A stretch of DNA of 49,903 nucleotides from Burkholderiales bacterium (GCA_012799975.1 JAAZKF010000120.1:1-49903); one strand, 5' to 3'; numbered from the stretch's first letter, positions 7,094-49,903 are shown. Numbers and translations: made by a program. Notes: a model not told the origin generated them from the sequence alone.

Positions 7094-7157
7094 TCAGCCG
7101 CTGCTTTGCACCGTGTTTCGTGCAGGGGACTCAAAGACTGGCGAGAACCGTCTCGAG

Positions 7158-17324: not shown

Positions 17325-17396
17325 GTCTCACGTAGTGCTCCGCTCCCCAGAATGCACGCCTTCCCTGCATCCAGACCCGCCGGCCCCGGTTCTCAA

Positions 17397-17415
17397 GCCA
17401 GACGGCGGATTCAGG
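17397..17415. repeat. Inverted copy of block A (18/19 complementary to 17270-17288)
   Basis: GCCAGACGGCGGATTCAGG is the reverse complement of CCTGAATCCGCCGtCTGGC. Its first 15 nt are identical to block A of copy 2 (40501-40515). Confidence 0.7.
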
Positions 17416-17511
17416 ATCTTGGAGGAACCTTGCCCCTTCTCGGCGCAGGAGCCTTCGCTGCGGACGTCCAACCCGGGCAGGTTGCACCAGGCTCCGGTAT
17501 CTTTCCAGACC

Positions 17512-20500: not shown

Positions 20501-22506
20501 CGGATTGGCAACCCACCGGTGAGACGGCTTTCTGGAGCCCTGAACTCCGGACCGGTCCGGAGGGTGCTGCGGAGGTTTCCTTGACCTGGCCCTTGCGCCC
20601 CGGGCGTTGGAAACTGCTGGCACGGGCCGTAGCAGGTAGGAACCGGATGGGTGAGTCCATGACCTTCGTGGATCTCGAGGAACGCCTCGGCTTGCGCCTG
20701 GAAGGTCCTGAGCATCTGGTGGAGGGAGACTCGGCTACCTACTCTGCCGTGTTGGAGAATCCGGGCCGGGAGGCCCTGGCTTTGAGGTTGCAGGCCCAGG
20801 CTACCAATCTCGACCTGGAAGGGACGGACCTGGTGGAGTTACAGGTTTCGGGAGGTGGTCGGGAGACCAGGCCGTTGCCCGTCCGGACTCGGGGCTCGGG
20901 TTCGGTAGATCTTGTCGTCACGGCTCAGGCTCCGGAAGTGAAGGGCCGGACCAGACGCCTCCTGCAGGTGGCGCCGGACAGCCAAATTCGCGAGCAGGTT
21001 CGCGCCGGAATGGTGGAGGATTCCGCTGTTCTGGACCTGGAGGCCCTGCCCGACTCTGTCCGGGAGTCGCGCCTGGAGTTGGCCATCTCTCCCGGACTGG
21101 CGGCGCTCCTCGGCTCGGCCGTCGAACCTCTGATGGGAACCCTGCCCAGCAACGATGGCCTGGTCTCCCGGGCCGTGCCGGCCTTGGTCCTGGTCCGCGC
21201 CCTGAAGGAATTGGAACTTCCCCGCCAGGACCTGGAAGAACGCCTGCCTGGAGTCGTGGAGGACTCCCTGCACCGCCTGGGGCACGCCCAGAACCCGGAC
21301 GGGGGATGGGGCTGGTGGGAGGGGATGCCTTCGGACATGGCAACGACCGCCTACGTGTGCCGAGGACTAGTTCAACTCGAGAAGGACGGTTTGCAGAGCG
21401 CGGCGCCGCTGCTGGAGAAGGCCTGCGTCTTTCTGAGGAAGGGTCAGGCGAAGCTCTCCGCCGAAGCGCGGCCGGCGGTTCTGCTGGCCCTCTCTGAAGC
21501 GCATCTGGTCTCGGGGCGCTCGCTCTTGTCCCTGGTCGGGCCTTCTATCCGTCTGGCCCCGGTCTCCCGAGTTAAACTGGCCCTGGCCTTGCAGAACATG
21601 GGCTACGCCGAGGCGGCCCGGGACCAACTGCGTCAGGCCCGTCAGGGCGCCGAGCACGACGCTCGGGAAGGCCTGGCCTGGTGGCCGGCCGGGGCCGGCT
21701 GGACCCAGGTCGAGGCTACGGCCTTGGCTCTGGAAGCTCATCTGCTCCTGGAGCCCGAGCACCCCCTCACCGAGGCAGCGGCCCTCTGGCTTACCCAACA
21801 GCGGGGCCTGAAGGGGTGGTCCTCTCCACGCGAGACGGCGCTGGCAGTAACGGCTTTGACCCGTTTCCTGACCTGGCTTGGCGAGAAGCCCCTGCCTTTC
21901 GGCTATGGTGTCTGGATCAACGGCAATGAGGTCGAAACAGGCCGATTCGCCCCGCAGGACTGGACCGGTACCCGTCTGCTCTCCTTGCGGGGAGCGCAGA
22001 TTCCCGAGGGTCCTCTGCGGGTAGATATCCGCAAGGGGGGAGGCGGTCGGTCCTGGTGGTGTCTCCGCCTCTCCTCGACGGGTCCCCGGCTGGTCGGAAA
22101 CCTGCCCTTGTCTCGAAGGCACTACCGCCTGCATCCTTCAGGGAAACGCCAACTGCTGGAGGATGGGAGCCTGCTTCAGGTTGGCGAGCGGGTGGAGACC
22201 ATCTTGGAGCTGAAGGCCCCTCGTCGTCTGCGTTACCTGGCGATCGAAGAGTCTTCCGCTGCCGGACTGGAGCCGGAACCGCCTTGGTCCCTTCCGGCTG
22301 GAGCCCGGGTTCAGATGCGTCCCCAGGGGCCGACCTTCTACTTTCAGGAGGTCCCCCCGGGCCTGACGCGGCTGGCCTGGAAGTCGCACGTCACTTCAGC
22401 CGGAGGGTTCACCTCGCTTCCAGCTCGGGCCTGGGAGGTCCACGAGCCCCAGGTTCACGGAGCCAGTTCGCCCTGGAAGGTGAGCATCGGGAGGGGCGAG
22501 CGATGA
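17512..22506 (+). CDS. Bacterial alpha-2-macroglobulin family protein with an N-terminal TPR-like region and no thioester motif
   Basis: The ATG at 17512 gives the signal/anchor MHLSRLHILFILLLLLGGLWLPAF. The protein is about 1,660 aa with long beta-rich repeats, then an alpha-helical TED-like region with NPDGGWGWWEG (about 21292-21324). At the position expected for GCGEQ it reads PSNDG, and no CxEQ occurs anywhere in the protein. Confidence 0.75.
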   Translation: MHLSRLHILFILLLLLGGLWLPAFPHTPAERLSAAQKAFRNQQPAEALEAFRSYLGVQPEGPHATEVHYRVAQCLDQLGRSGEARASLEDWLATAPPDPWQTRGWILLADLRARDGQNRGAEAAYTRALEVSVRVPGTVEARLQALLDRGRLRASALEFESRRPAAEADLLEVIRGDFRGSRGGEARLALGELYLKNPQVWDLTLERAVDVWREMARVQPQHPLVPEARLRSARAFNASRRHGDALEDLEALLQDFPRSEQASEAARMLADLQKPRLSLPPWTVSRPGRAAQVPLQFRNLSNLQIEVWKVDLVQAVAQGADLQDLASGLTPTSPSRLQLSVPGVDLQDHCWHRQSVELNLTEAGVYLLEARSQGTRSRGLLLVTDLVGLCLAGSEGEATVWLVDAARGQGVWEAEAWLVSPTDSDRPLESLTVSGAGLVTMPAPSIPTRSFLLARRGQDHLILPDLRSPERLPSWRAVLETDRSGYRGGERLRWKAVVRSLKPDGYGVPAGHPFLLEVLDPKGRQFHQIRLQASSLGTLRGEVLLPQEALEGTWTLNLQEIAGSGPPVAMTRSFFSVSASDTDRLRIRLRPAQSWWLWGEKAHLDLEVRDALERPVPEARVEWQARGRTLQIQPPLDLELDWFRPVAPLVPSSSSGVSRGTGQARIDARGRGTLAIPLTLPDQDPGIEGLEVQVRVWDSRNREGLARTGFVVGPSAVLLQLALEGDVQPGNPATVRVHGWDLEGNPAPVSVQLRQVLPQSQDLGVLQLDQHGRGTLQWTPQGSGPWILEAQARDSRGGGGEAHLSASRTKPAQGDFWMRPDRLRYRPGQVARVELGTPRDGAQVLLTMEGRGVLRRMVVGCPTRTTRLELPIGEDLAPGFRLRATTMRDSEELSVHQEIQVPAPAQVLDIQVEPLTPPAPGQPGRIRVRTLDQENHPVESEVSLTLVTQEALPGEARHRLVPAFFGPPSMQTLAMGYSLVTPPLKPALLPPAPASASDWQPTGETAFWSPELRTGPEGAAEVSLTWPLRPGRWKLLARAVAGRNRMGESMTFVDLEERLGLRLEGPEHLVEGDSATYSAVLENPGREALALRLQAQATNLDLEGTDLVELQVSGGGRETRPLPVRTRGSGSVDLVVTAQAPEVKGRTRRLLQVAPDSQIREQVRAGMVEDSAVLDLEALPDSVRESRLELAISPGLAALLGSAVEPLMGTLPSNDGLVSRAVPALVLVRALKELELPRQDLEERLPGVVEDSLHRLGHAQNPDGGWGWWEGMPSDMATTAYVCRGLVQLEKDGLQSAAPLLEKACVFLRKGQAKLSAEARPAVLLALSEAHLVSGRSLLSLVGPSIRLAPVSRVKLALALQNMGYAEAARDQLRQARQGAEHDAREGLAWWPAGAGWTQVEATALALEAHLLLEPEHPLTEAAALWLTQQRGLKGWSSPRETALAVTALTRFLTWLGEKPLPFGYGVWINGNEVETGRFAPQDWTGTRLLSLRGAQIPEGPLRVDIRKGGGGRSWWCLRLSSTGPRLVGNLPLSRRHYRLHPSGKRQLLEDGSLLQVGERVETILELKAPRRLRYLAIEESSAAGLEPEPPWSLPAGARVQMRPQGPTFYFQEVPPGLTRLAWKSHVTSAGGFTSLPARAWEVHEPQVHGASSPWKVSIGRGER

Positions 22507-24718: not shown

Positions 24719-25474
24719 ATGCGAATCTTGCTGACCAATGATGACGGGATCCACGCTCCCGGGCTGGATGCCCTCCTGGAGGCCTTGCGCCCCTTGGGCC
24801 ACGTAACGGTGGTGGCCCCGGACCGCGAACGCAGCGCCGTGGGTCACGCCCTGACCTTCCACTCGCCCCTGAGGGTTCGTGAGTTGTCAGGAGAGGAAGG
24901 CCTGGCCCGCTTCGTGACCGACGGCACGCCCACCGACTGCGTCCTGCTGGCCTTGTATTCCTTGATGCCAGAGAAGCCGGACCTGCTCTTCTCGGGCATC
25001 AACCGCGGGGCCAACCTGGGCGATGACGTCACCTATTCCGGGACCGTCTCGGCGGCCTTGGAGGGGCTTATCCACGGGATTCCCTCGATCGCCGTCTCGC
25101 AGGTGGGACGCCAGCCGCAGCACTACTTGACGGCGGCGAACTTCGCGGCTCGCCTGGCCGAGCGTCTGGCCCACCACATCCGGATGCCTCCGCGCACCTT
25201 GCTGAACGTCAACGTGCCGGACCTTCCCCCGGAGGCCATCCGGGGGGTGCAGGTCACCCGCCAGGGACATAGTCTATATGACCAAAAGATCGTCAAACGG
25301 GTGGATCCCCGTGGACACGAATATTATTGGGTTTCCGGTTCGATGCCCGGGGGCAACACCGAGGAGGGGACCGATTTTCGCGCCATCCAGGAGGACTGCA
25401 TCTCGGTAACCCCACTCCAGACCAACATGACCCACCACGCCCTGCTTGAGGAAATAGACTCGTGGGGTCTGTGA
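24719..25474 (+). CDS. surE: 5'/3'-nucleotidase SurE
   Basis: MRILLTNDDGIHAPGLDAL...VVAPDRERSA...SGINRGANLGDDVTYSGTVSAA is a canonical SurE pattern. Confidence 0.9.
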   Translation: MRILLTNDDGIHAPGLDALLEALRPLGHVTVVAPDRERSAVGHALTFHSPLRVRELSGEEGLARFVTDGTPTDCVLLALYSLMPEKPDLLFSGINRGANLGDDVTYSGTVSAALEGLIHGIPSIAVSQVGRQPQHYLTAANFAARLAERLAHHIRMPPRTLLNVNVPDLPPEAIRGVQVTRQGHSLYDQKIVKRVDPRGHEYYWVSGSMPGGNTEEGTDFRAIQEDCISVTPLQTNMTHHALLEEIDSWGL

Positions 25475-26733
25475 ATCGGGAGGCTTTCGAGGAGTACCCC
25501 GAGGTTGGATTCCTGCGGGATGAACTGACGGGTCTACCGATTCTCAACTCGGTCCTTGAACAGGTCGATTTCCATCTGCAGCGCCGAGACCAGGTCGGCT
25601 TCCTTTATTTCGACGTGGTCCAGTTCCATCTCCTCAAGGAGACCTACGGTCGGGAGATCTCCGAGGCCTTGCTCGAGGAGTCGGGGCAGGCCTTGGCCCG
25701 GCTGCGCGGCAGGCTCTTTCGCGACCGGGACCTGGTGGCAGTCGGGGGGCGCGGGACAGACTATTTCGTGATTTTCCTGTTCTCCCCCCCGCGCCACAAA
25801 GCCAGCTTCTCGCAGTCGGACCTCAAGATGGTTTCCTGTAGGGTGGTCCAGAAACTGACCAACCTTATCAACGAGAAGGCCGCCTCTTTGGGGGTCAAGG
25901 AGAAGATCGACTTCCATTCCGGCTATACGGTGATCGTCCACGATCCCGAGACCCCGGTCGAGCGCCTGGTCTACGAGGCCCAGAAGGAGGCTGCACTCCA
26001 GAGCGATCTGGACGAGGTCCTGGTGACCTTCGTCTCCAACCTCACCCACGAGCTGCGGACTCCTCTGACGTGTATCAAAGGCTACGCCGAGACCTTGCTG
26101 GAAGGCGCCTTGGAGGATCGCGACCTGGCCCGTCGTTGGCTGCAGGTAATCAGCGAAGAGGCCGAGCGCCTGGAGCGCTTGATCAACGATTTGTTGGACG
26201 TTTCCATGATGGAGGCCCAACAGGTCGAGTTCCATTTCGAGCCCACCGACCTGTTACTCCTGGCCCAGCGTACCGCCGAGGTGCTCATGCCCCACGCCTC
26301 CAAGTCCGGGGTGACCCTGGCCGTACGCGGGACCGACGCGCTTCCGCTGATCCAGGGGGACCGGGACCGGCTCAACCAGGTCCTCTTGAACCTGGTCGAC
26401 AACGCCGTGAAGTATTCTCCTCCTGGAAGCGAGGTGATCCTGCGCTTGGGGCTGGGAGCCCCGGGTTGGGTCTTCTTGGAGGTCCTGGACCGCGGGACCG
26501 GTATCCCCGCGAGCCAACTCCCGAGGATCTTCGAGCGCTTCTATCGCATCGAGAAGGGGCGCGGAGCTCGCCACGGCGGTCGCGGCCTGGGGCTGTCCAT
26601 CGCCAAGAGGATCGCCGAAGCCCACGGAGGCGACCTGTCGGTGGAGAGCCAGATGGGCTCGGGCAGTGTCTTCCGTCTGGACCTGCCGGTGAGGGGGCCC
26701 TTCATCGAGGAAGGTCGCGACGAGGAAGATTGA
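25471..26733 (+). CDS. Sensor histidine kinase with a degenerate GGDEF-like N-terminal domain
   Basis: H-box SNLTHELRTPLT, N-box LNLVDNAVKYS, G1 DRGTGI and G2 GGRGLGLSIA. The N-terminus has LTGLPILNS and VGGRGTDYFVIF in place of LTGLxNR and RxGGDEF. The GTG at 25471 overlaps the surE stop (GTGA); GTG at 25462 is an alternative. Confidence 0.8.
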   Translation: MNREAFEEYPEVGFLRDELTGLPILNSVLEQVDFHLQRRDQVGFLYFDVVQFHLLKETYGREISEALLEESGQALARLRGRLFRDRDLVAVGGRGTDYFVIFLFSPPRHKASFSQSDLKMVSCRVVQKLTNLINEKAASLGVKEKIDFHSGYTVIVHDPETPVERLVYEAQKEAALQSDLDEVLVTFVSNLTHELRTPLTCIKGYAETLLEGALEDRDLARRWLQVISEEAERLERLINDLLDVSMMEAQQVEFHFEPTDLLLLAQRTAEVLMPHASKSGVTLAVRGTDALPLIQGDRDRLNQVLLNLVDNAVKYSPPGSEVILRLGLGAPGWVFLEVLDRGTGIPASQLPRIFERFYRIEKGRGARHGGRGLGLSIAKRIAEAHGGDLSVESQMGSGSVFRLDLPVRGPFIEEGRDEED

Positions 26734-28853: not shown

Positions 28854-29615
28854 TCAAGGGGAGGACCCCTGAAATTGGGCTCCGCTGAAGTCGGGGTGGG
28901 TATCGCCTCGTCGCCAGCGCGACAGCCACAAGCCCCACATCGAACCGAGAATCGACAGCCCGCCGACCAGCCAGGGGTCCGCCGCGGCCGGAGGGGGAAT
29001 TGAGAGAACTCGGGCCAGGGAGTCTGCGACCACTCCCGCAGCGGGGAGGGCCATCAGGAGTCCCAGCACCGCCCACAATGGGCGGCGGACGGGCCAGCGG
29101 ACGTCGGCCAGCAGGGTCAGGATGAGCGCCACTGGGAAGGCCAGCGGCGCGGCTGCCTCCAGGAAGAGGCTCCAGACCACCCAGGAGACCCCTCCCACCG
29201 AGGCGGTCACCTGGCAGCCGCGACCCAGCTCGCGCAGCAGGCGGGCCATCCCTCCCAAGGCCGTGCGTTCCTCGTGCCCCAGGGGGAAGACCACCCAGGA
29301 CTCACCCAGCCGGGCACCTGCATACCAGGAGGCCGCGGCGGGCAGGAGCAGGATCGCCTGGGCGGTCCATTTGTCGGGCGGCGTGGCGTGAAAGGCCCCG
29401 GCCACGGACAAAGCGCAACCCGCTACGAAGATGTCCCAACCCGGGAAGTGTTGCCAGCAGACCACCGCCGTCAAACCGCCGGCCAAGGCGGCCAGGGCCA
29501 CGACCCGCCAGTCGTCCGCGGGCGCCAGCAGGAAGAGGGGGACGAAGAAGAGCAGGGCCGCAGCCAAGGCGGCCAGGGCCCGGTGTTCATCGGCCAGACG
29601 GGGCCAGGAAATCAT
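28854..29615 (-). CDS. Hypothetical polytopic membrane protein
   Basis: 253 aa with about 7 hydrophobic segments. The antisense plus-strand ORF (29274-30608) has Gly/Arg/Pro-skewed shadow composition. Confidence 0.5.
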   Translation of the reverse strand: MISWPRLADEHRALAALAAALLFFVPLFLLAPADDWRVVALAALAGGLTAVVCWQHFPGWDIFVAGCALSVAGAFHATPPDKWTAQAILLLPAAASWYAGARLGESWVVFPLGHEERTALGGMARLLRELGRGCQVTASVGGVSWVVWSLFLEAAAPLAFPVALILTLLADVRWPVRRPLWAVLGLLMALPAAGVVADSLARVLSIPPPAAADPWLVGGLSILGSMWGLWLSRWRRGDTHPDFSGAQFQGSSP

Positions 29616-29699
29616 GGCCGTGCCTTCTTCCTGTCGGGCGGACTCCCTTCGTGCCGACCCGGCAGGCGGCCGAGGGGTTTCCGGCTGGGCTCCAGGCGA

Positions 29700-30614
29700 T
29701 CAGGGCATCGGCCAGGCCTCGGCGTGCAGGTGCGGACCCGTCCACCAGGTAGAGCCCTGCAGATACTCGTTGAGCGTCTCGAAGCCGCTCTGGCGGGCCA
29801 GTTTCTCCAGATGCGAACTGTCGAACTCGTGGGTGTCGGGTCGGTAGCCGTCGCGGATTCGCTCCAGGACCAGGTCCAGGGCGCGTCCCTCCCCGTGAGC
29901 TGTTCCCGCGTGCTTCCCGCCGGTGGTGCAGGTTATCGCCAGACGATATCCGGGGAAATCCTGTCCCACTGCCTTTTCCAGCGCCAGGAAGCGCTTGAAG
30001 GTCAGGGCTCGGGCTTCAAAGCCCCGGTAGCGCACCATGAGGTTGGGGTTGCTGGCCGCCACGCGACGGACTTGTTCCGGGCTCAACCCGTCCTCTTCCC
30101 CGCGCAGGGGGTAGCCATTGGCCAAGGCGCGTTGGTAGGCCTCCTCCTGGCCTGCTCGCCGGAGGTGGCGGGGTCTTCCGTCCGGGTTCTTGATCCAGAA
30201 TTCGCCGCTGTGCACTTCGTCCAGGAGCTTCTCGGTAGCGGAGTCCAGACTGCGTCCGTCCACCCCGGTCCCGAGAACCTTCTTGAAGAAGGTCAGGGCT
30301 TTGGCGGTCTGGGGGCCGTAACACCCGTCCTCCGCCAGGATTCCCCTCCAGCCCGGCATCCAACGGAGGAGGTCCTCCTGCAGGCGCAGAACTTCCGGGC
30401 CCTGGTCGCCGAGTCTGAGTTTCGGGGGTTTCGGGACCTGGGGACTGGCCTGGAGCAGCGCTCGGGCCTGCGGGGAGAGTTCGAGTCGGTCGCCCTGCGA
30501 CCCCCCTGGCTCTTCACCCTGGCTCTGGAACTGGCAGGTTCCAGGTTGCCGTGTCCTGAGGGGTCGAGGGACCAGGCAGGGGGTAGCCGGCGCGGGATTC
30601 TTCAATGACTCCAT
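29700..30614 (-). CDS. Peptidoglycan-binding-domain protein with a LAS/M15-like zinc peptidase C-terminus
   Basis: PG_binding_1-like LRLGDQGPEVLRLQEDLL...DGCYGPQTAKAL. The C-terminus has AHGEGRALD (HxxGxAxD) and PHLHAE (HxH), as in M15/LAS peptidases. The start was chosen at the ATG at 30614 (MESLKNP); the longer start at 30839 would run through the fabZ promoter/start region. Confidence 0.55.
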   Translation of the reverse strand: MESLKNPAPATPCLVPRPLRTRQPGTCQFQSQGEEPGGSQGDRLELSPQARALLQASPQVPKPPKLRLGDQGPEVLRLQEDLLRWMPGWRGILAEDGCYGPQTAKALTFFKKVLGTGVDGRSLDSATEKLLDEVHSGEFWIKNPDGRPRHLRRAGQEEAYQRALANGYPLRGEEDGLSPEQVRRVAASNPNLMVRYRGFEARALTFKRFLALEKAVGQDFPGYRLAITCTTGGKHAGTAHGEGRALDLVLERIRDGYRPDTHEFDSSHLEKLARQSGFETLNEYLQGSTWWTGPHLHAEAWPMP

Positions 30615-40686: not shown

Positions 40687-41523
40687 TTGCTGGAGATCAC
40701 CCGCTTCTTCCAGGACATCACCTTCAGGGATCTCTTTGATGTATCCCTGGTTGCGCTATGCCTGTACTACCTGCTGCTGGCCTTGCGCGGAACCCGTGCC
40801 ATCCAGATCCTCCAAGGTTTGACGGTCCTGTTCATCCTGCTGGCCATCGCCTACCTGGCCCGCCTGCAGACGCTGACCCATCTGTTGAACGGTGTCCTGG
40901 TCTCGACGGCAGTGGCCCTGCCCGTCGTCTTCCAGCCCGAGTTGCGGCGGACGCTGATGCGCTTGGGTCAACAAGGGCTGCTGACACCCGGTTCCCTGCG
41001 CAACCTGGGCAAGGAGGAACTCGGCCGCCTGGTAGACGAGGTCTCGTTTGCCGCTTTGAACCTTTCGCTGGCTCGTTTCGGCGCTTTGGTGGTGCTCGAA
41101 CAGGAGACGGGCCTGGAGGAAATAACCGAGACCGGCCAGGCGATCAACGGGATTATTTCCGCCAAGCTTCTGCAGACCATCTTCCACCCCAAGACTCCGC
41201 TTCACGACGGGGCGGTGGTGATCCGGGGCACTCAACTGGTGGCGGCAGCATGTTACCTGCCTTTGACCGAGCAGGTGGTGGACGCCCGCTTCGGGACCCG
41301 TCATCGAGCGGCGCTGGGAATCACCGAACAGACCGATGCCGTGGTCGTGGTGGTTTCGGAGGAGACCGGTGATATCCGGATCGCCCATGAGGGGCACTTC
41401 TCTCGACCCATGACCGAGGAGGCCGAAGTCCGCAAGGTCCTCAACCAGTACCTGGTGGCCGAGGTCTACCGGAGTCGCACCCCGCGGGTCCGCCCGGCCA
41501 CCATCCCGGAGTCCGGCTCATGA
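40687..41523 (+). CDS. cdaA: Diadenylate cyclase CdaA (membrane-anchored DAC domain)
   Basis: Three N-terminal TM segments. DAC motifs LHDGAVVIRG, GTRHRAALGITEQTDA and VVVSEETGDI. TTG start at 40687. Confidence 0.9.
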   Translation: MLEITRFFQDITFRDLFDVSLVALCLYYLLLALRGTRAIQILQGLTVLFILLAIAYLARLQTLTHLLNGVLVSTAVALPVVFQPELRRTLMRLGQQGLLTPGSLRNLGKEELGRLVDEVSFAALNLSLARFGALVVLEQETGLEEITETGQAINGIISAKLLQTIFHPKTPLHDGAVVIRGTQLVAAACYLPLTEQVVDARFGTRHRAALGITEQTDAVVVVVSEETGDIRIAHEGHFSRPMTEEAEVRKVLNQYLVAEVYRSRTPRVRPATIPESGS

Positions 41524-42505: not shown

Positions 42506-43936
42506 ATGGAGTCTTCCATGTCCTCACTCTTTGGAACCGACGGAGTCCGCGGGGTCGCCAACCGGGACCTGACCCCCGAGCTGGCTTTCCGGATCGGGCG
42601 GGCCCACGGTCATCTCTTGAGCCCCCCTGGGCGCCGTCCTCGCGTCGCTATCGGGCGCGATACCCGGGTCAGCGGTCAGATGCTGGAGGCAGCCTACGTG
42701 GCGGGTCTATGCTCGTCGGGGGCAGACGTGATCCTGCTGGGCATCATGCCCACCCCCGGGGTCGCCTGGCTGGTCGTTCAGCTCCAAGCCGACGGCGGCG
42801 CGGTGATTTCAGCCAGCCACAACCCGGTGCAGGACAACGGGATCAAGCTTCTCAATGACCAGGGTTTCAAGCTTTCCGATGAGGAGGAAGAGACCCTGGA
42901 AGCGTTCGTCACCCGGGCTGACGAGCTTCCCCGCCCCATCGGAGCCGACCTGGGCCGGGTTGAGTCCCGCTCGGAAGAGGCCGAGGACCTCTATGTGGAT
43001 CACCTGTTCCGCAGCGCTCCCTCGCGCCTGGATGGCCTGGAGGTCGTCCTGGACTGCGCCAACGGCGCGGCCTGTCGGGTGGCTCCACGGGTCTTTGAGG
43101 CTTTGGGAGCCCGGGCCACGGTCCTGTCGGCTCGCCCCGATGGGATCAACATCAATCGGGACTGCGGATCCACCCACCCCGAGGAAATGCTCAGGACCGT
43201 CTGCCAGACCCGCTCCCGCCTGGGCCTGGCCTTTGATGGCGATGCCGATCGCTGTCTGGCCTCCGACGAGGAAGGGAACCTGGTGGACGGGGATCCCATG
43301 CTGCTGCTCTTCGCACGCTGGTTGCGCCAGCACGGTCGTCTGCCCGGCGACATCCTGGTCACCACCGTAATGGCCAACTTCGGCTTGGAAGAAGCCTTGC
43401 GCCGGGAAGGGATCGGGATGGTCCGGACCCCGGTAGGTGATCGCTACGTGCTGGCCGAGATGCGACGCTGCGGTGGGACCTTGGGCGGGGAACAATCGGG
43501 TCACATCATCTTCCTGGATCACGCCACCACTGGCGACGGAGTCCTGACCGGGGTGATCCTGGCTTCTATCGTTCACCAGGCGACCGAACCGCTCTCCTGT
43601 ATGGTTCGGGCCATGACCCGCATGCCTCAGGTCCTGGTCAACGTCCCGGTCCGCGACAAGTCGCTGTGGGACAAGGACCCCGAGATCGCCCAGGCCGTGG
43701 CTCAAGGCCAGGATCGGCTCCGCGAACGCGGGCGCATCCTGGTCCGCCCTTCGGGCACCGAGAACCTGGTGCGGATCATGCTGGAAGGTCCCGATCGAGA
43801 AGAGCTTGATCGCCTGGTAGGCGAGATCCGACAAGTCATGGAAGAGCGCCTGGCCGTTCAGGGAACGGCCTGCTGTCATGGCTCCACCCCAGACCGGGAG
43901 CATCCGTCAGAGGGCAACCCCGGTTCGCCACCCTGA
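42506..43936 (+). CDS. glmM: Phosphoglucosamine mutase
   Basis: LFGTDGVRGVAN, ISASHNP (phosphoserine loop), FDGDADR, GGEQSGH and RPSGTE. An alternative ATG lies 12 nt downstream. Confidence 0.9.
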   Translation: MESSMSSLFGTDGVRGVANRDLTPELAFRIGRAHGHLLSPPGRRPRVAIGRDTRVSGQMLEAAYVAGLCSSGADVILLGIMPTPGVAWLVVQLQADGGAVISASHNPVQDNGIKLLNDQGFKLSDEEEETLEAFVTRADELPRPIGADLGRVESRSEEAEDLYVDHLFRSAPSRLDGLEVVLDCANGAACRVAPRVFEALGARATVLSARPDGININRDCGSTHPEEMLRTVCQTRSRLGLAFDGDADRCLASDEEGNLVDGDPMLLLFARWLRQHGRLPGDILVTTVMANFGLEEALRREGIGMVRTPVGDRYVLAEMRRCGGTLGGEQSGHIIFLDHATTGDGVLTGVILASIVHQATEPLSCMVRAMTRMPQVLVNVPVRDKSLWDKDPEIAQAVAQGQDRLRERGRILVRPSGTENLVRIMLEGPDREELDRLVGEIRQVMEERLAVQGTACCHGSTPDREHPSEGNPGSPP

Positions 43937-43948
43937 GGAGGCATCCCG

Positions 43949-44827
43949 TTGAATCCTGACTCCACCTCCGAGGTCCTCTCGGCGCTTCGAGATGCCCAGA
44001 AGCGCCTCACCGATATCGCACGCCCCTTCAAGGATGCCGAGCGTCTCCTCAAGGAACTTTCCGATCCTCGGACCCGACGAAACCTGAAGAAGATCGGTGT
44101 GTCCCTGTCCCGACTGCGCGCCCTGCCACCGGTCCAGACTGAGTTGACGGCCGAGCTGGGTCCCCTGATCGAGACCCTGGAAGCTTTCGTCCAGGAGCAG
44201 GAGCGCAGCCGCCCGCTGTACTTCGGGCGCAGCCTGCGCGAGGCGGCCGAGGCCCAGCAAATCGCGTTTTCGGTGCTGACCTCCGAACCCCCCGAATACC
44301 GCCTGGCCCCCTTCAGCGTCGGCGCAGACTTCCGTAAGGGCAGGGCTGAACTGCGCTACGCCCGTCTGGCGCTATGCGAGGTAGACCTGGACCCCGAGTC
44401 CCTGTTGAAGGCTCGTTTGAAGATGCTGGAGGCCTTGGATACCAAGGATTTCTGCCCCGAGCGCTTTTTCGACCGCCTGCTGGAGGCCTACCGCAGGGTC
44501 CTGGAAGGACGATCGATGGGGGAGCGGGTCAACCTGGTGGACCTGCTCCCCGAGTTGGCTTTCCTGGGCCAATCCGAGCGCTTCCGCAAGGATCCCATCC
44601 GCGACCACTATCAGCCCTACGGCCGGGTCCGACTGGCCTGGGATCTGGCCCGCTTGCGGCGCAGCGGTTCCTTGTCCCGCAAGGGGTTGCGCCTGGGCCT
44701 GGGCACTGCCACCATGTCCACGACCCGGAAAAAGGAGGGCGTGCTCTTCCTGGAGGACGAGACGGGTCGCGGACAATATTACCTGAGTTTGTGCTTTGCT
44801 CCCGACCCGACACCCCAAGGAGCCTGA
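43949..44827 (+). CDS. Hypothetical protein, first gene of the ATPase-ATPase-helicase cluster
   Basis: The TTG at 43949 lies 7 nt after GAGGAGG (43935-43941), which overlaps the glmM stop. 292 aa, helical and Arg/Leu/Glu-rich. No TM segment, signal peptide or catalytic motif recognised. Confidence 0.55.
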   Translation: MNPDSTSEVLSALRDAQKRLTDIARPFKDAERLLKELSDPRTRRNLKKIGVSLSRLRALPPVQTELTAELGPLIETLEAFVQEQERSRPLYFGRSLREAAEAQQIAFSVLTSEPPEYRLAPFSVGADFRKGRAELRYARLALCEVDLDPESLLKARLKMLEALDTKDFCPERFFDRLLEAYRRVLEGRSMGERVNLVDLLPELAFLGQSERFRKDPIRDHYQPYGRVRLAWDLARLRRSGSLSRKGLRLGLGTATMSTTRKKEGVLFLEDETGRGQYYLSLCFAPDPTPQGA

Positions 44828-44831
44828 AGTC

Positions 44832-46112
44832 TTGAAGGATGAGACCGATACCCTGGACGCCGCTCTGGCCGGGCACATCCTGGCGCGCATGGGCGAGGCG
44901 GGACAACCCCCCGAGCACGGGATCCGCCACGTCAACGTGGGCAATGAGCACTTCCTGGAGATCCTGCGCGTCGAGTATCTCGACCGCCTGCTGAGCCAGT
45001 CCCGGGGATCGGCCTTCAAACTTGTCCAAGGTTATTATGGAGGGGGGAAGACCCACTTCCTGTACTGTGTCCGTGATCTGGCCTGGGAGAAGGGTTTCCT
45101 GACGGCCCTGGTCAGTCTTTCTCCCCAGGAGTGCCCTTACGAGGACCCCTATCTGGTCTATCGGGCCGTCGCCGGCCAGGTGGCCGCGGCGCCAGCCGGG
45201 CCGGGGCTGGAACAGACGCGCGGCATTGCGGACGTTCTGCGCGATCTGGTCGAAGAGGTCCTGCTCCCACTGCCAGCGGCCGAGCGGGCTCACTGGCTCA
45301 GCCGGAGCGCCCTGCGCTTCCCGGTTGACAGTCACAGCTACCGGCGTGCCGCCGCGGAGTTCCTGCGCTGCGTGGTGGAGGAGGATCGCGAAGGCGAGTT
45401 GATCCTGGAAGCCTGGTTGCGCGGGGATGCCGTTCCCCGCAGTGATCTCCGTCGTTTCGGAATTTTCGAGACCATCGAACGGCCCAACTCCTTCCAGGCC
45501 CTGCGCAGCCTGTGCCAGGTCCTGGTGGGCTATGGGTTCCCCGGGCTGGTCCTTATGTTCGACGAGGCGGATCGCAATCTGTCGATCTCCAGTCGTCGCA
45601 TCCAGGCCTTGGGGGATAACCTCCGCCAGGTGATCGACCTTTGCGGTGCTTCGCAGTTGCCTGGGGTCCTTTTCCTGTATGCCGTGCCCCCCGAGTTCCT
45701 CCGCCTAGTGGTTCCCGAGTATCCGGCCTTGGATCAGCGCCTGCGCAGCCCGGTGCCCATGTCCCGACACAGCCCCCAGGCGGCATTGATCGACCTCGAG
45801 CAGATGTCCCTGGGGACCGAGAGCCTGTTGGAGGGGATCGGCACGAAACTCCTGGCGGTCTTCAAAGCGGCCTATGACTGGGAACCCACCCTGGCCATAC
45901 AGCAGGGTAACCTGCAGGCCCTGGCCCGGGCTTCGGCGCGCTTCAGCCTGGAGATCGGCCATCGCCGGCACTTCGTCAAGACCTGGGTGGCCTTTCTTCA
46001 GCAACAGAGGTTGCGAGGCGAGTCATGGCTCTCGGACGAGGGTGCCGAGGCCCTGCTCTCCCAGGGCTTCCTCGCGGCTTCGTCCGATGATCAGGACTTC
46101 TCCGATGTCTGA
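44832..46112 (+). CDS. P-loop NTPase, tentatively DUF2791/BrxD-like (paralog 1)
   Basis: The TTG at 44832 lies 9 nt after AAGGAG and 4 nt after the upstream stop. Walker A is QGYYGGGKTHF (about 45030-45056) and Walker B is LVLMFDEADR (about 45546-45572). It is collinear with the next gene (VG.E...L, G.YG.GKTH.L, VYRA, hhhFDEA). Confidence 0.65.
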   Translation: MKDETDTLDAALAGHILARMGEAGQPPEHGIRHVNVGNEHFLEILRVEYLDRLLSQSRGSAFKLVQGYYGGGKTHFLYCVRDLAWEKGFLTALVSLSPQECPYEDPYLVYRAVAGQVAAAPAGPGLEQTRGIADVLRDLVEEVLLPLPAAERAHWLSRSALRFPVDSHSYRRAAAEFLRCVVEEDREGELILEAWLRGDAVPRSDLRRFGIFETIERPNSFQALRSLCQVLVGYGFPGLVLMFDEADRNLSISSRRIQALGDNLRQVIDLCGASQLPGVLFLYAVPPEFLRLVVPEYPALDQRLRSPVPMSRHSPQAALIDLEQMSLGTESLLEGIGTKLLAVFKAAYDWEPTLAIQQGNLQALARASARFSLEIGHRRHFVKTWVAFLQQQRLRGESWLSDEGAEALLSQGFLAASSDDQDFSDV

Positions 46113-46127
46113 GCGGGACTTTCGAGC

Positions 46128-47618
46128 ATGAACGCTCCGTGGCAGCCCGGCGATGAGGTCTTCCATCCGGCCTATGGTCGAGGGCGGGTGAACCGCCTGA
46201 TCCGGGGAGGCCGCTACCTGCTAGTCCTCTTTGAAGGCCGGCGACTTCTCTCCCAGGTCTCTGCTCATGAGCTGGCCGGGCCTTCCCGCCCGAGGCTGGC
46301 CCCGGCACGTGCTCCGAAGGGATGGACGCCCCGTCGGGACTCGCCTCCGCCTGCCCGGGTTTCGGTAGAAGCCCTGTTGCCTCGGGGGGTTTCCGGCGAG
46401 CATCAAGCCTTGCAGGTTCTGGAGGCCTTGCGGGTGGGCGTGGCTCCCCGACAACTGGTGGAACTGTACACGGTGGGCCGAGAACGGGAGATGGCCCTGG
46501 TGGACGCGGATCTGGACCAGGTCCCTGGAGGGGGGGCGGCCCGGGTCTTCCTGGGCGACTATGGCGCCGGCAAGACCCACATGTTGGAGTGCATCGAGGA
46601 ACGGGCCCTGCGCCGGAATCTGCTGGTGGCCAGAGTGACCCTGGACGAGAGGGAGGTGGCGGCCAGCCATCCGCGTCGGGTCTATCGGGCCCTGGTGCAG
46701 AACCTGGCATATCCGGACCGGGTCGACCGGCCAGGTCTGGAACCGTTGCTGGAGGCCGCCTGCGAGAAGAACCTGGACCGCTGGTTGCGGCGCGGGTCGC
46801 CGCGCCATCACCACTACCTCTCACCGGCGCTGGCCTACTTCCGGGAACTGCGCGAGCCCCAGAAGGACCGGCCCTTGCGAGAGTCTCTGTTGGACTGGCT
46901 GGAAGGCCATCCGACGGTCTCCAATACCGAACTGGGCCCGGCCTTGCGCCGGGCTACGGGCCTGCGAGGTCAGCGCCTGTACGCGTTGCAGGACCACCGC
47001 ACCCTGGCCCACCTGTATGCCTACCTCCTGGGAGGGATATCGGTCCTGGCTCGCGATCTGGGATACGCCGGGTTGGCCGTCCTCTTCGATGAGGCGGAAT
47101 TCTACAGCCTGCTCTCCGGACAGGGGCGCGAGTTCGCCAATCTGCTTTTCGGTTACTACGCGGCAGCGGCCCTGGGGCCCGAGAAGGTTGCCTTTGACAT
47201 CCACTCGGCGGCTCGGGGAGGGCACCTGGTCCACCGGTCCTTTCCCCCGATCTTCGCTCCGGTCCAAGGCATCTACTGCGTCTTCGCCTTGACCGAGGAC
47301 CCCGTCGGATTGCAGGCCTTGCAGACCATCCTGGGGGAAGAGTATTTCACCCGCCTGACTCCCCTGGACCTGGAGCACTTCCAGGAACTGTGTCGCCGGG
47401 TGCTGGAACTCTATCGCCGGACCTATCCGGCCTTTACCGCGGCCGACCAGGTCGATCGCCCCATGGGTGAGGTCGTCTATCAGGGAGTCGAGCGGGGTGT
47501 CTTCGAGAATCCTCGTCAGGTTTTGAAGTTCGTGGTAGAACTTCTGGACTACTCGCGTCTCTGCCGGGACAGGATCCCCGAGTACGTGCGCGAGTTGCGA
47601 GGGCACCTGACAGGGTGA
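46128..47618 (+). CDS. P-loop NTPase, tentatively DUF2791/BrxD-like (paralog 2), with an N-terminal Tudor/SH3-like domain
   Basis: The N-terminus PGDEVFHPAYGRGRVNRLIRGGRYLLVLFEG (about 46140-46277) fits the GDxVxHxx(F/W/Y)GxGxV pattern of the PcrA/UvrD C-terminal Tudor domain. Walker A is GDYGAGKTHM (about 46554-46580) and Walker B is LAVLFDEAEF (about 47073-47102). Confidence 0.65.
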   Translation: MNAPWQPGDEVFHPAYGRGRVNRLIRGGRYLLVLFEGRRLLSQVSAHELAGPSRPRLAPARAPKGWTPRRDSPPPARVSVEALLPRGVSGEHQALQVLEALRVGVAPRQLVELYTVGREREMALVDADLDQVPGGGAARVFLGDYGAGKTHMLECIEERALRRNLLVARVTLDEREVAASHPRRVYRALVQNLAYPDRVDRPGLEPLLEAACEKNLDRWLRRGSPRHHHYLSPALAYFRELREPQKDRPLRESLLDWLEGHPTVSNTELGPALRRATGLRGQRLYALQDHRTLAHLYAYLLGGISVLARDLGYAGLAVLFDEAEFYSLLSGQGREFANLLFGYYAAAALGPEKVAFDIHSAARGGHLVHRSFPPIFAPVQGIYCVFALTEDPVGLQALQTILGEEYFTRLTPLDLEHFQELCRRVLELYRRTYPAFTAADQVDRPMGEVVYQGVERGVFENPRQVLKFVVELLDYSRLCRDRIPEYVRELRGHLTG

Positions 47619-49669
47619 AGGACCTGCGGGCCTGCCTGCCGCGGACCTGGTATGCCTTCCTGGCCCGCCATCCGCGTCCCCGCCCCATCCAGGTCCTGGC
47701 TGCCCGGCCGATCCTGGAGGGGAAGGCTGTCCTGCTGGCTTCGGCCACCGCCTCCGGCAAGACCGAGGCTTATGTGGCGCCCCTGGTGGAACTCTGGCTG
47801 GAGGACATGCGCGCCGGGGTGACCCGCATCCTGGTCGTCAGCCCTACCCGGGCCTTGGTCAACGACCTGGCCCGGCGCCTGGAGACTCCATTGCGCCGCT
47901 GTGGGGTTCGCGCTCAACGGCGCACCGGCGACCATCCCCGACCCCTGGAGGGCTCGCGCGCCGGGATCCTGCTGACCACCCCCGAGTCCCTGGACTCGCT
48001 GCTCTCGCGTCATGCCCGCAACCTGGGAGCGGTTCGCGCCGTGGTCCTGGACGAGCTCCATGTCTTGGAGGGAAATGCCCGGGGAGACCAGCTCCGGGTC
48101 CTGCTGGAACGTCTGGAACGGGTAGTCCAGGCCTTGGGCGGTCCGGCCCCCCAGCGCCTGGCGGCGACAGCCACCTTGGGGCGGGCCTCGGAGGTAGCTC
48201 AGCAATTCCTGGGTGCCGGCGCCGTGCTGGCCCAGATAGAGTCCCCCCGGGACATCCAGATGCATATCCGGACCGTGGAGACCCCCGGACTCCTCCAGAG
48301 CAGCCTGCTGCAGGCGTGCCTGGAGCTGTCGGCCCGCAAGGTCCTGGCCTTCGTCCCTTCCAGGGCGGATGCCGAGGACCTGGCCGTGGTCCTGGCCGGT
48401 CGCCCTCCCTTTCATTCGGCTGTGAAGGTGCATCACGGCAGCCTCTCCCGCCAGGAACGCGAGCACGTCGAGCAGACCCTGCTTCGGGCGGAGGCGGCTT
48501 TGTGCCTGACGACTCCGACGCTGGAAGTGGGAATCGACGTGGGAGATGTGGATCTGGTGGCCCTGCTGGGACCCCCTCCGGACGTGACCTCCTTCCTGCA
48601 GCGGATCGGCCGGGGGAATCGCCGTTCGGGAGCCTGCCAGGTCCTGGCCCTGGCGCGTTCGGTGGGCGAGGCGGCCCGCTTTGCCCACCTGGCGGAGTGC
48701 GCGCGGGCGGGGCGCCTGCTGCCTCAGGTGCGCCCTTTCCGAAGTTCGGTGCTGGTGCAACAAGCCTTCTCCTTGCTCTTCCAGAACCCTCGTCGTTTCG
48801 TGTCCGGGGCCGCCTTAAGCGGAAGGCTCCCCCCTGGTCTGGTCCGCCGTTTCGGACCCGAGCGCTGCGACGAATTGTTGGCCCACCTCTGCGATGAGGA
48901 GTGGCTGGTTCCCGTCGCTACCGGCCGCTTCGGTCCCAGTCCCCGATTGTTGCAGTTCTTCGAAAGGGGGAAGATCCACCACAACCTGGATGCCGAGGGC
49001 TCGGAGGAAGATCGGGTGGAGGTGGTCGACGAACAGACCGGGCGTCTGTTGGGCCACGTGTATCGGGATGCCCAGGGCAATCTGCCGGAGGAGATCAGCC
49101 TGGGGGGACATAGACGTCGCATCGTGGCAGACCACGGTCGCCAGATCCGCTCGCGAGCGACCGGGAAGGGCCGGGCAGAGTTCCGCTCCCGGGGCTCTGC
49201 CGAGGTTTCGGCCGAATTGGCGGCAGACCTGGCCCGCTACCTGGGCGTCGACCCGCGGCACCTTCCCACCGTCAGGAAGGATGGGAGCTTGCTGGTAGGT
49301 CACTTCCTGGGTTCGGCTCGGGCTCGCCTGCTGCGCGAGGCCCTGCGGGATGCGGTCGGGACCGGTGCCGGGGCAGGTCCTTTCCTGGCCTGGCTTCCGA
49401 TCTCGGCCGACTGGCCGGGAAATCTGGACACCGCCAGCCTGCGACGACTGCTTGCGAGTCGCCGCCGCAGGCTGGGACGCTCCCTCGGAGCGGGCCCCTG
49501 GGCCAGCGCCTTGCCCGGCGACTGGTTGTTGGAGGACCTGGAGGCTATGGCGGATCCCCAGGGGACGGCGCAGTCCCTGGCCGGCCGGGTGCTGACCCCG
49601 GCGGAGCCGCACCTGGCCGAAATCCTGGTGGGCCTGCTGCCCTCGTGGAAGAGCAAATCCGCCCTGTAG
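47615..49669 (+). CDS. Superfamily-2 DExH-box helicase (Lhr/BrxHI-like)
   Basis: The GTG start overlaps the upstream stop (GTGA at 47615-47618). Motif I is ASATASGKTEAY (GKT at 47756-47764), motif II is VVLDELHVL (about 48041-48061), motif III is ATATLG and motif VI is LQRIGRGNRR (about 48599-48625). The stop lies at the composition break with the IS21 end. Confidence 0.8.
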   Translation: MKDLRACLPRTWYAFLARHPRPRPIQVLAARPILEGKAVLLASATASGKTEAYVAPLVELWLEDMRAGVTRILVVSPTRALVNDLARRLETPLRRCGVRAQRRTGDHPRPLEGSRAGILLTTPESLDSLLSRHARNLGAVRAVVLDELHVLEGNARGDQLRVLLERLERVVQALGGPAPQRLAATATLGRASEVAQQFLGAGAVLAQIESPRDIQMHIRTVETPGLLQSSLLQACLELSARKVLAFVPSRADAEDLAVVLAGRPPFHSAVKVHHGSLSRQEREHVEQTLLRAEAALCLTTPTLEVGIDVGDVDLVALLGPPPDVTSFLQRIGRGNRRSGACQVLALARSVGEAARFAHLAECARAGRLLPQVRPFRSSVLVQQAFSLLFQNPRRFVSGAALSGRLPPGLVRRFGPERCDELLAHLCDEEWLVPVATGRFGPSPRLLQFFERGKIHHNLDAEGSEEDRVEVVDEQTGRLLGHVYRDAQGNLPEEISLGGHRRRIVADHGRQIRSRATGKGRAEFRSRGSAEVSAELAADLARYLGVDPRHLPTVRKDGSLLVGHFLGSARARLLREALRDAVGTGAGAGPFLAWLPISADWPGNLDTASLRRLLASRRRRLGRSLGAGPWASALPGDWLLEDLEAMADPQGTAQSLAGRVLTPAEPHLAEILVGLLPSWKSKSAL

Positions 49670-49903
49670 ATGTAAACAGTGCCTCGAGTGTCCGCGCTAC
49701 TCTAAAACAGACCCCTTTGAAGCCAAACGCTAGCTGAAAAGAGACCCCCCCTTGAGCCCGAAAGTCTGACCCGAGCCAGTGGAAATTTTTCAAGTTTTCT
49801 GGCTTTCGGGAGAGAGGATGCTCAATGTGGTAGATTACGAGGTCATTCGAAGGCTGCACTTCAAGGAGCACTGGTCGATCAAGAGGTTGGCCCGGGAACT
49901 CGA
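49665..49903 (+). mobile_element. Left end of an IS21-family insertion sequence (partial; continues beyond the window)
   Basis: GC drops sharply after about 49670. TGT-initiated candidate termini lie at 49665 and 49671. Two direct repeats, AAAACAGACCCCTTTGAAGCC (about 49704-49724) and AAAAGAGACCCCCCCTTGAGCC (about 49737-49758), resemble the multiple IstA-binding repeats at IS21 ends. The istA N-terminus follows. Confidence 0.6.
49818..49903 (+). CDS. istA: IS21-family transposase IstA, N-terminal HTH (partial)
   Basis: The ATG at 49818 follows GAGAGAGG. MLNVVDYEVIRRLHFKEHWSIKRLAREL matches the typical IstA start (M..V.....IRRLH.-EG.SIK.IAREL). The ORF is open at the window end. Confidence 0.7.
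   Translation, partial: MLNVVDYEVIRRLHFKEHWSIKRLAREL

Follow-up and report, generated by a model that had tools for sequence, protein, structure and literature searches.

Near the right end of a DNA stretch of 49,903 nucleotides (nt) from a Burkholderiales bacterium (GCA_012799975.1, JAAZKF010000120.1:1-49903; hereafter the window), four tightly packed co-directional open reading frames (ORFs), g1 to g4, occupy positions 43949-49669 of the plus strand according to the ORF listing and the sequence reads. They encode an uncharacterised protein (g1), two related ATPases (g2 and g3) and a putative helicase (g4). By analogy with the ATPase-helicase pairs of Shango and type 2 BREX, the genes may specify a stand-alone, resident surveillance complex in which ATP gates the loading of a helicase, that is, a relative of these pairs built around a new signature protein. 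We consider the chances for and against this reading to be evenly balanced. A stand-alone surveillance module had been proposed in a preliminary description of the locus. The proposal holds in that the set is self-contained and has no BREX or Shango partners; however, the set is not island-borne in this lineage, and the helicase is not obligatory. The gaps of 4 nt between g1 and g2 and of 15 nt between g2 and g3, and the GTGA overlap between g3 and g4, are as that description had given them.

The gene set recurs in other genomes. Forty species-level loci (one genome per species; L numbers denote loci) were collected using a 17-sequence g1 alignment and two peptide patterns, and they were screened with the four window proteins. 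Since two patterns were used, distant members are under-sampled. The g2 gene follows g1 in all of the 40 loci, and g3 comes next in all 36 in which the contig continues. The helicase gene g4 is present in 28 of the 36 loci, and no g4 homolog lies within 10 kb in the other eight. The linked loci span Vulcanimicrobiota/UBP9, Desulfobacterota, Myxococcota and Armatimonadota. The same gene order in 40 of 40 independent species-level loci cannot be put down to chance. The genes g1, g2 and g3 form the obligate core, and g4 is usual but dispensable. The co-occurrence expected for the genes was therefore observed across phyla; of the four-gene set proposed earlier, g1-g2-g3 is constant, whereas the helicase is not.

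Several arrangements were observed. The order g1-g2-g3-g4 was found in 17 loci, from UBP9 relatives, Desulfatiglandales, other Desulfobacterota (including Delta proteobacterium NaphS2), Myxococcales and Armatimonadetes. The eight loci with no g4 homolog within 10 kb have g1-g2-g3 and belong to Vulcanimicrobiota. Counting the helicase-less loci with an annotated downstream gene, a stand-alone receiver-domain protein of about 110-130 residues is encoded directly after g3 in L004/L013, L014 and L050. The receiver gene of L014 and L050 is followed by the gene of a protein of about 1650 residues with no Pfam match, and L030 has ORFs of matching size. An expanded form, g1'-g1-g2-g3-g2'-g4, was found in 11 loci of gut and rumen lineages (L034 and L036-L045; for example, L039 8875-17150). 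Here g1' is a 284-residue distant paralog of g1, encoded upstream of it (hhalign probability 96.5%, E 9e-10). The g2' gene encodes a third ATPase between g3 and the helicase, and the window g2 is nearer to g2' than to the first copy. In Desulfobacterota and Myxococcota, a six-gene form (L019-L031 and L049; for example, L021 6401-9995) has two further co-directional genes directly before g1. One encodes an SNF2 helicase of about 800 residues with a tetratricopeptide repeat (TPR) N-terminus, and the other encodes a protein of about 385 residues that matches no family and has a zinc ribbon at its C-terminus. The SNF2 protein scores 262 bits against DrmD and 238 bits against RapA, all scores being far below the cutoffs (950, 610 and 576 bits).

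The g2 and g3 products were both assigned to the PF10923 family (BrxC_BrxD/DUF2791), with 113.4 bits (E 1.6e-32) and 118.2 bits (E 5.7e-34), respectively, against a gathering threshold of 22.2 bits. The DUF2791/BrxD-like assignment of the preliminary description is thus supported by a profile search. The PADLOC models for BrxD are matched at 4.6e-26 (g2) and 1.3e-26 (g3), and those for SngB more weakly, at 2.3e-16 and 9.5e-20. The NCBIfam BrxD equivalog NF033438 gives 90.1 and 93.5 bits and its cutoff of 350 bits is not reached. By these profile scores, g2 and g3 are members of the Pfam family of SngB but of a separate subfamily. From Walker A to Walker B the two proteins are collinear paralogs, as had been noticed, with 29% identity over 207 residues (E 5e-11). 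The Walker A motifs lie where they had been placed, GGGKTH at residues 70-75 of g2 (nt 45039-45056) and GAGKTH at residues 146-151 of g3 (nt 46563-46580), and the Walker B motifs MFDEAD and LFDEAE are found in the translations. The Walker A motif and the Walker B DE of g2 are kept in 53 orthologs, and GAGKTH and FDEAE of g3 are kept in 39 orthologs. Both proteins are apparently active as ATPases, judging from these motifs. The g2 product is the most conserved protein of the set (Desulfobacterota orthologs are 52-55% identical), and its profile gave no match among the sequences of the Protein Data Bank (PDB).

The first 52 residues of g3 have the pattern GDxVxHxxYGxGxV...GGR...F and are followed by a Pro/Lys-rich linker. 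This N-terminal domain is kept in nearly all g3 orthologs. A profile of 22 orthologs matches the solved Tudor domains of UvrD1, UvrD and PcrA in seven PDB entries with E-values from 2.7e-6 to 5e-3 (9dqs 2.7e-6, 6yi2 3.2e-5, 7egs 4.7e-5 and 5dma 2.8e-3 among them). In single-sequence searches of Pfam, 14 of the 22 match CarD_TRCF_RID and 13 match PcrA_UvrD_tudor, below the cutoff where scores are shown (16.6 versus 23 bits). The invariant His13 of g3 and its residue 16 (Tyr both in the window protein and in the consensus of the profile) fall opposite the His and Trp of PcrA HRKWG in the alignment. From the spacing and the PcrA numbering, we take these two residues to be H681 and W684 of PcrA. 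The conserved H681 and W684 are among the PcrA residues that were mutated to test RNA polymerase binding (Sanders et al., PMC5397179). PcrA binds RNA polymerase elongation complexes via its Tudor domain and suppresses R-loops (PMC8318588). According to the profile matches, g3 appears to start with a PcrA/UvrD-type Tudor domain, which was overlooked in the preliminary description. Transcription/replication conflicts had been named there as an alternative role, and the putative Tudor domain would be the sole direct sequence support for it.

The g4 product matches the Pfam families DEAD (8.5e-30, 104 bits) and Helicase_C (1.5e-14, 54.6 bits), both above threshold, in agreement with its earlier assignment as a superfamily 2 (SF2) helicase. 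The motifs GKT (within ASGKTEA), DELH and QRIGRGNRR, reported earlier, are found in the translation. Among the PADLOC models, which have no curated cutoff, BrxHI is matched at 5e-64 (215 bits, residues 20-537) and SngC at 1.5e-59 (200 bits). The Lhr-type helicase models of NCBIfam give 162 bits (the best, ligase-associated) and 137 bits versus cutoffs of about 850 bits. The closest solved structures are those of Lhr (5v9x, 1e-25; 7lhl, 6e-25), followed by YprA (6znp, 1e-17), which is the same protein as MrfA. Among orthologs the helicase motifs are conserved, and the C-terminal half is poorly conserved. By these comparisons, g4 is an SF2 member and is not an Lhr ortholog. Because the scores are far under the NCBIfam equivalog cutoffs, the g2-g4 products are best described as relatives, not orthologs, of BrxD and Lhr.

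The g1 product, the signature protein of the system, has no match in the Pfam, PADLOC and NCBIfam models. A word-indexed search gave 145 relatives, all of them lacking Pfam domains and informative names. An exhaustive profile search gave 1018 cluster representatives at E <=1e-3, nearly all of them stand-alone proteins of 270-320 residues. The AlphaFold2 models have a predicted confidence score (pLDDT) of 92.8 for the whole protein and 92.5 for residues 103-292. In the predicted fold, residues 3-102 at the N-terminus form a long helical hairpin, and residues 103-285 form a globular body of the alpha+beta type. Foldseek searches gave nothing below E 0.2 in the PDB (full-length protein and globular part) and nothing below 0.025 in BFVD (full-length protein), and the PDB hits examined have TM-scores of <=0.31. 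Weak matches to winged-helix domains of the origin recognition complex (ORC), Cdt1 and Stn1 were treated as noise (E >0.9, TM-scores <=0.31). The g1 profile against the PDB sequences gave coiled-coil noise only. An identity with TerB/SngA was likewise rejected, because g1 and 45 homologs have no TerB match in PADLOC, Pfam and NCBIfam (E up to 0.1-1).

In the g1 family, Arg, Thr, Gln and Gly residues are invariant and Tyr and Lys residues are near-invariant, and no acidic residue is invariant. The median isoelectric point (pI) of the family is 9.0. Because the model is confident, the pI is basic and catalytic acidic residues are missing, we propose that g1 may be an adaptor or a nucleic-acid binder rather than an enzyme. 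For want of a conserved set of acidic catalytic residues, g1 is unlikely to be an enzymatic effector. In the expanded form, the g1 paralog and the third ATPase were gained jointly, which suggests that g1 pairs with an ATPase. In-frame fusions of GlmM (PGM_PMM domains I-IV) and g1, of about 730 residues, were also observed (P0284 and P0312; L032 3-1892 and L033 8390-10627). They make up at least two clusters at 50% identity and two loci, in one lineage.

The system has a fixed chromosomal place in its own lineage. The order cdaA-cdaR-glmM-[system]-glgA is held from 99% to about 31% g1 identity, and the gut-lineage variant is included. The identities track those of the neighbours. In comparison with L047, g2 is 82%, glmM 75% and cdaA 82% identical, and in comparison with L039, g2 is 42%, glmM 54% and cdaR 37% identical. 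The ratio of nonsynonymous to synonymous substitution rates (dN/dS) ranges from 0.10 to 0.24 in g1-g4 and from 0.08 to 0.23 in the genes that flank them, and dS is the same in both groups. According to these comparisons, the system in the UBP9 lineage is inherited like a housekeeping gene set and is under purifying selection. Location in variable islands, which was to be checked for these genes, was not found in this lineage; instead, position, divergence and dN/dS are those of the neighbours. A cdaR-based scan of metagenome contigs returned only three close relatives. The base composition is uniform across the window, and no compositional anomaly was detected. The gap between glmM and g1 is 12 nt, and a consensus scan of this interval gave no promoter- or terminator-like site. 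The short gap and the lack of a terminator-like site make it probable that one transcript covers cdaA-cdaR-glmM and the system.

When 87 flanking ORFs at 19 non-UBP9 loci were scanned with PADLOC, no defence family recurred among the matches listed; the exceptions among these matches are the SNF2 gene of the system itself and two families with two members each. This negative result carries little weight, since the ORFs were called crudely and the families were judged among the matches listed. Other Pfam-annotated contexts of the loci are housekeeping or regulatory. The only defence-island-like context seen is L048 (2861-18460), in which g1-g2-g3 lie between EVE-McrB plus McrC and a SEC-C protein plus a SIR2 (ThsA/LmuA-like) gene.

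A mechanism can be outlined by analogy with known helicase loaders. The paralogous ATPase subunits suggest a hetero-oligomer, and g2 and g3 would form an assembly of the ORC/Cdc6 type. The basic coiled-coil protein g1 would be an adaptor or nucleic-acid-binding partner of this assembly, a pairing suggested by gene adjacency and by the joint duplication of g1 and g2. The Tudor domain of g3 would tether the assembly to RNA polymerase or to another protein with a helicase-interaction motif. ATP binding and hydrolysis would then load or license g4 on the DNA or RNA:DNA structure met there. In the helicase-less forms the output must differ, perhaps via the receiver-domain protein. Both the hetero-oligomer and the loading of the helicase are steps that we infer by analogy. 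As the target, foreign DNA is plausible at a little under an even chance, and the system would then provide resident rather than island-borne immunity. Endogenous transcription-associated structures, such as R-loops, stalled RNA polymerase and replication conflicts, are a possible target that we consider only slightly less probable than foreign DNA.

Several observations weigh against an ATP-gated, Tudor-docked helicase loader with a surveillance role. Since eight loci have no g4 homolog within 10 kb, the output of the system cannot always be the helicase. The set includes no nuclease, toxin or recognisable effector that would explain the destruction of an invader. The family is uncommon and has a scattered distribution over the phyla, as would be expected of an accessory system more than of a core function. 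The Tudor assignment is a short profile match (E 2.7e-6 to 5e-3), below the Pfam cutoff. The equivalent of PcrA K712 is not conserved in the g3 domain, and five helicase-less loci have g3 without the domain. Moreover, Tudor domains also bind partners besides RNA polymerase.

Two further readings of the same genes are tentative, and we hold each of them to be on the unlikely side. In one of them, the system is an RNA polymerase-coupled helicase loader, in which a Tudor-docked g1-g2-g3 hetero-oligomer would deploy the Lhr-like g4 at R-loops or stalled complexes. It would serve housekeeping genome maintenance in UBP9/Vulcanimicrobiota, and it would be a non-immune sibling or ancestor of BrxD-BrxHI and SngB-SngC. 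In the other, the system is an ordinary anti-phage or anti-plasmid defence, namely a form of Shango that has exchanged TerB for a different sensor; it would act on invading DNA, there would be no link to transcription, and the fixed position would be incidental. The closest characterised relatives of both enzymes are found in validated defence systems, and SngC and BrxHI, together with DruE and DpdJ, belong to an SF2 clade for which immune function is described as the defining trait (PMC12278908). The surroundings of L048, the DrmD-like SNF2 helicase added in Desulfobacterota, and a modularity typical of defence systems, by which the helicase, ATPase copies and the receiver domain are gained and lost, point in the same direction. 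However, ordinary defence does not account well for housekeeping synteny as deep as a class, with co-divergence and dS equal to the neighbours, nor for the probable co-transcription with glmM and the GlmM-g1 fusions. The flank scan, the lack of a compositional anomaly and the lack of a recognisable effector also argue against it, and it leaves the Tudor domain unexplained.

The constant place behind glmM, with its 12-nt gap, raises the question of a functional tie to cdaA-cdaR-glmM. In such a case the system would take part in the control of cyclic di-AMP or of envelope precursors, and the ATPases would be regulators or chaperones, not nucleic-acid enzymes. The GlmM-g1 fusions and the receiver domain after g3 in the annotated helicase-less loci agree with such a tie. 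However, 30 of the 57 loci examined, outside the UBP9 lineage, are without cdaA or glmM nearby. The partners outside UBP9 are helicases (SNF2 and g4), and all three protein families (ATPase, helicase and Tudor) speak for nucleic acids. We regard the tie as improbable.

The coordinates of the genes and of their neighbours are listed in Table 1. The TTG at 44832 is taken as the start of g2. GGAG is present upstream at 44819, and the resulting 426 residues equal the gene-caller product in relatives. A longer g2 ORF, listed with a TTG at 44796, would overlap g1. The window glmM has a C-terminal tail of about 24-28 residues which is missing in 88%-identical relatives (476 versus 448 residues).

Table 1. 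Positions of the g1-g4 system, the preceding genes and the terminal insertion element, counted from the first nucleotide of the window
Feature	Position	Strand	Description
g1	43949..44827	+	292 aa, TTG start; signature gene of the system, encoding a basic protein from an uncharacterised family
g2	44832..46112	+	426 aa, acidic; BrxD/SngB-like AAA+ ATPase (PF10923)
g3	46128..47618	+	496 aa; putative Tudor domain, Pro/Lys-rich linker and PF10923 ATPase
g3 N-terminal Tudor-like domain	46128..46283	+	residues 1-52; PcrA/UvrD or CarD-TRCF RNA polymerase interaction domain (RID) type
g4	47615..49669	+	684 aa; SF2 DExH helicase of the BrxHI/SngC/Lhr kind
cdaA, diadenylate cyclase	40687..41523	+	PF02457 DAC / CdaA_N, as annotated in relatives and in L054, an identical contig
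cdaR, YbbR-domain regulator of CdaA	41520..42458	+	PF07949 YbbR; 4-nt overlap with the cdaA stop
glmM, phosphoglucosamine mutase	42506..43936	+	PGM_PMM domains I-IV
IS21-family element, left end	49672..49903	+	IstA start codon at 49818; window and contig end within the element

The cluster had been described as ending at an IS21 insertion sequence (IS), and this was substantiated. The window forms the end of a 52-kb contig from a biogas fermenter. In 98%-identical contigs, the partial ORF at 49818 (MLNVVDYEVIRRLHFKEHW...) continues into a 512-residue IstA, of which it encodes the N-terminus, and the IstB gene comes next. The complete IstA of L051 scores 244 bits against the IS21 equivalog NF033546 (cutoff 160), and IstB_IS21 follows. 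The window keeps the first 28 IstA codons only. Homology to the IS-free relative L001 stops at the g4 stop codon. In the 98%-identical contigs of the Joint Genome Institute, an extra 825 bp is present between window positions 49689 and 49690 (L051 15722-18526 region). It contains a 77-residue helix-turn-helix-like ORF resembling a truncated second IstA N-terminus. The extra segment suggests that IS21 copies are nested or arranged in tandem, or that part of the window's copy was deleted.

As the helicase gene abuts the IS21 element, partner genes might lie beyond the insertion, which the preliminary description had raised. No such partner is found in IS-free relatives (67-92% protein identity), in which the gene after g4 is glgA, and an RNase T-like gene, Usp and HD come next. 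The insertion thus severed nothing. The ten largest ORFs upstream encode SpoIID, AAA, alpha-2-macroglobulin, PMT_2, PLD, GGDEF-histidine kinase and DUF1015 proteins, a protein with a weak zinc-ribbon match and two proteins without a Pfam match; PglX, PglZ, PglW and BrxC are not among them. In relatives, PglX, PglZ and BrxC/PglY were not found within 10 kb upstream or downstream. No large ORF of the PglW kinase/NERD type was found in the window or in the flanks of the relatives. TerB was not found in the Pfam-annotated 10 kb upstream; the small ORFs of window positions 1-34 kb were not individually scanned. Within this scope, the upstream region is free of BREX and Shango partners, as had been reported. 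A remnant of type 2 BREX (Pgl), that is, a BrxD-BrxHI dyad left by gene loss or separated by IS21, is suggested by the best PADLOC matches and by the adjoining element, but it is extremely improbable. The IS-free relatives lead us to reject the split by IS21; in addition, the same stand-alone set is present in 40 loci of several phyla, the BrxD equivalog scores are far from the cutoff, the Pgl genes are missing among the large upstream ORFs and all the genes are under purifying selection.

Other genes of the window were recorded on the way. Positions 17335-22506 encode a 1723-residue bacterial alpha-2-macroglobulin (MG2, A2M_BRD, A2M, TED and bMG10) with an N-terminal TPR. Positions 25462-26733 encode a GGDEF-HisKA-HATPase_c hybrid, in which a diguanylate-cyclase-like domain is fused to a histidine kinase. 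A 684-residue SpoIID-domain protein is encoded at 10651-12705; to our knowledge, the host lineage does not sporulate. The putative ORFs at 7113-8888 and 29274-30608 (591 and 444 residues) have no Pfam match (E <=0.001), and they may be high-GC artefacts.

A role in phage defence has been validated for the paired ATPases and helicases of Shango and type 2 BREX, whose mechanism is not understood. The g1-g4 cluster may offer such a module stripped to its own core, with a new signature protein that forms about 1000 sequence clusters and has no known fold. A recognisable docking domain on one ATPase would be a concrete experimental handle on ATPase-helicase modules. The housekeeping-like inheritance across a deep lineage and the fusion with GlmM would mean either that such modules can be long-term residents or that the defence versions have a non-immune origin. 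There is also a consequence for annotation. Current pipelines give such genes the name 'BREX system ATP-binding domain-containing protein', yet no BREX accompanies them.

The cluster was compared with the systems described so far. The PADLOC (v2), Pfam and NCBIfam models do not cover g1, and full-text literature searches on DUF2791, BrxD, SngB, SngC and BrxHI gave no description of the gene set; by these searches, the locus belongs to no system already described, in line with the earlier proposal. Shango has the gene order TerB-like protein, ATPase and helicase, and protects against phages. The cluster has the same order of an accessory protein, a PF10923-type ATPase and an SF2 helicase. The g2 and g3 products match SngB, and a SngC-type helicase follows the ATPases. 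Like Shango, it stands alone without a methyltransferase. The first gene is different. In Shango it encodes TerB (SngA), whereas g1 is not a TerB protein and its fold is unmatched. Shango has one ATPase, whereas the cluster has two paralogs (three in one variant), one of them with the putative Tudor domain. Furthermore, the helicase is dispensable in one clade of the cluster, unlike in Shango, and the cluster is fixed between housekeeping genes, whereas Shango is located in defence hotspots.

In type 2 BREX, BrxD and BrxHI are reported to form a tightly linked dyad, in which BrxD, classed as an ORC/Cdc6-type AAA+ protein, is proposed to load or activate BrxHI (PMC12839542). The cluster shares the tight ATPase-helicase linkage, and its best profile matches are BrxD and BrxHI. 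However, PglX, PglZ, PglW and BrxC are not found here, and the BrxD equivalog scores are 90-93 versus 350 bits. BrxD is described as a stand-alone ATPase without accessory domain (PMC12839542), whereas g3 has the Tudor domain and the linker.

The likeness to other proteins concerns single parts of the cluster. The repair helicases Lhr and YprA include the closest solved structures to g4 and its best NCBIfam model. In its C-terminal half, g4 shows no conservation with Lhr, and the equivalog score is far below the cutoff (162 versus 850 bits). We know of no working partnership of Lhr or YprA with PF10923 ATPases. The C-terminal Tudor domain of PcrA/UvrD and the RNA polymerase interaction domains of Mfd/CarD resemble the N-terminus of g3 in the profile match and in the His and aromatic positions; the PcrA/UvrD domain is C-terminal on a superfamily 1 helicase, whereas that of g3 is N-terminal on an AAA+ ATPase. 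The likeness to DISARM DrmD and RapA-type SNF2 proteins is limited to the upstream SNF2 gene of the six-gene form, which the window lacks. The N-terminus of that DrmD-like protein is TPR, not Tudor, and DrmA, DrmB, DrmC and a methylase are not present in the six-gene form. The relation to ORC/Cdc6-MCM and DnaC-DnaB is a functional analogy only, in that an initiator-type AAA+ protein is encoded beside a putative helicase client. These replication loaders act on ring hexamers, whereas g4 is of the monomeric SF2 type, and homology between g1 and Cdt1 is not proposed. Judged from its sequences, the cluster would work like Shango and the BrxD-BrxHI dyad, but it is a member of neither.

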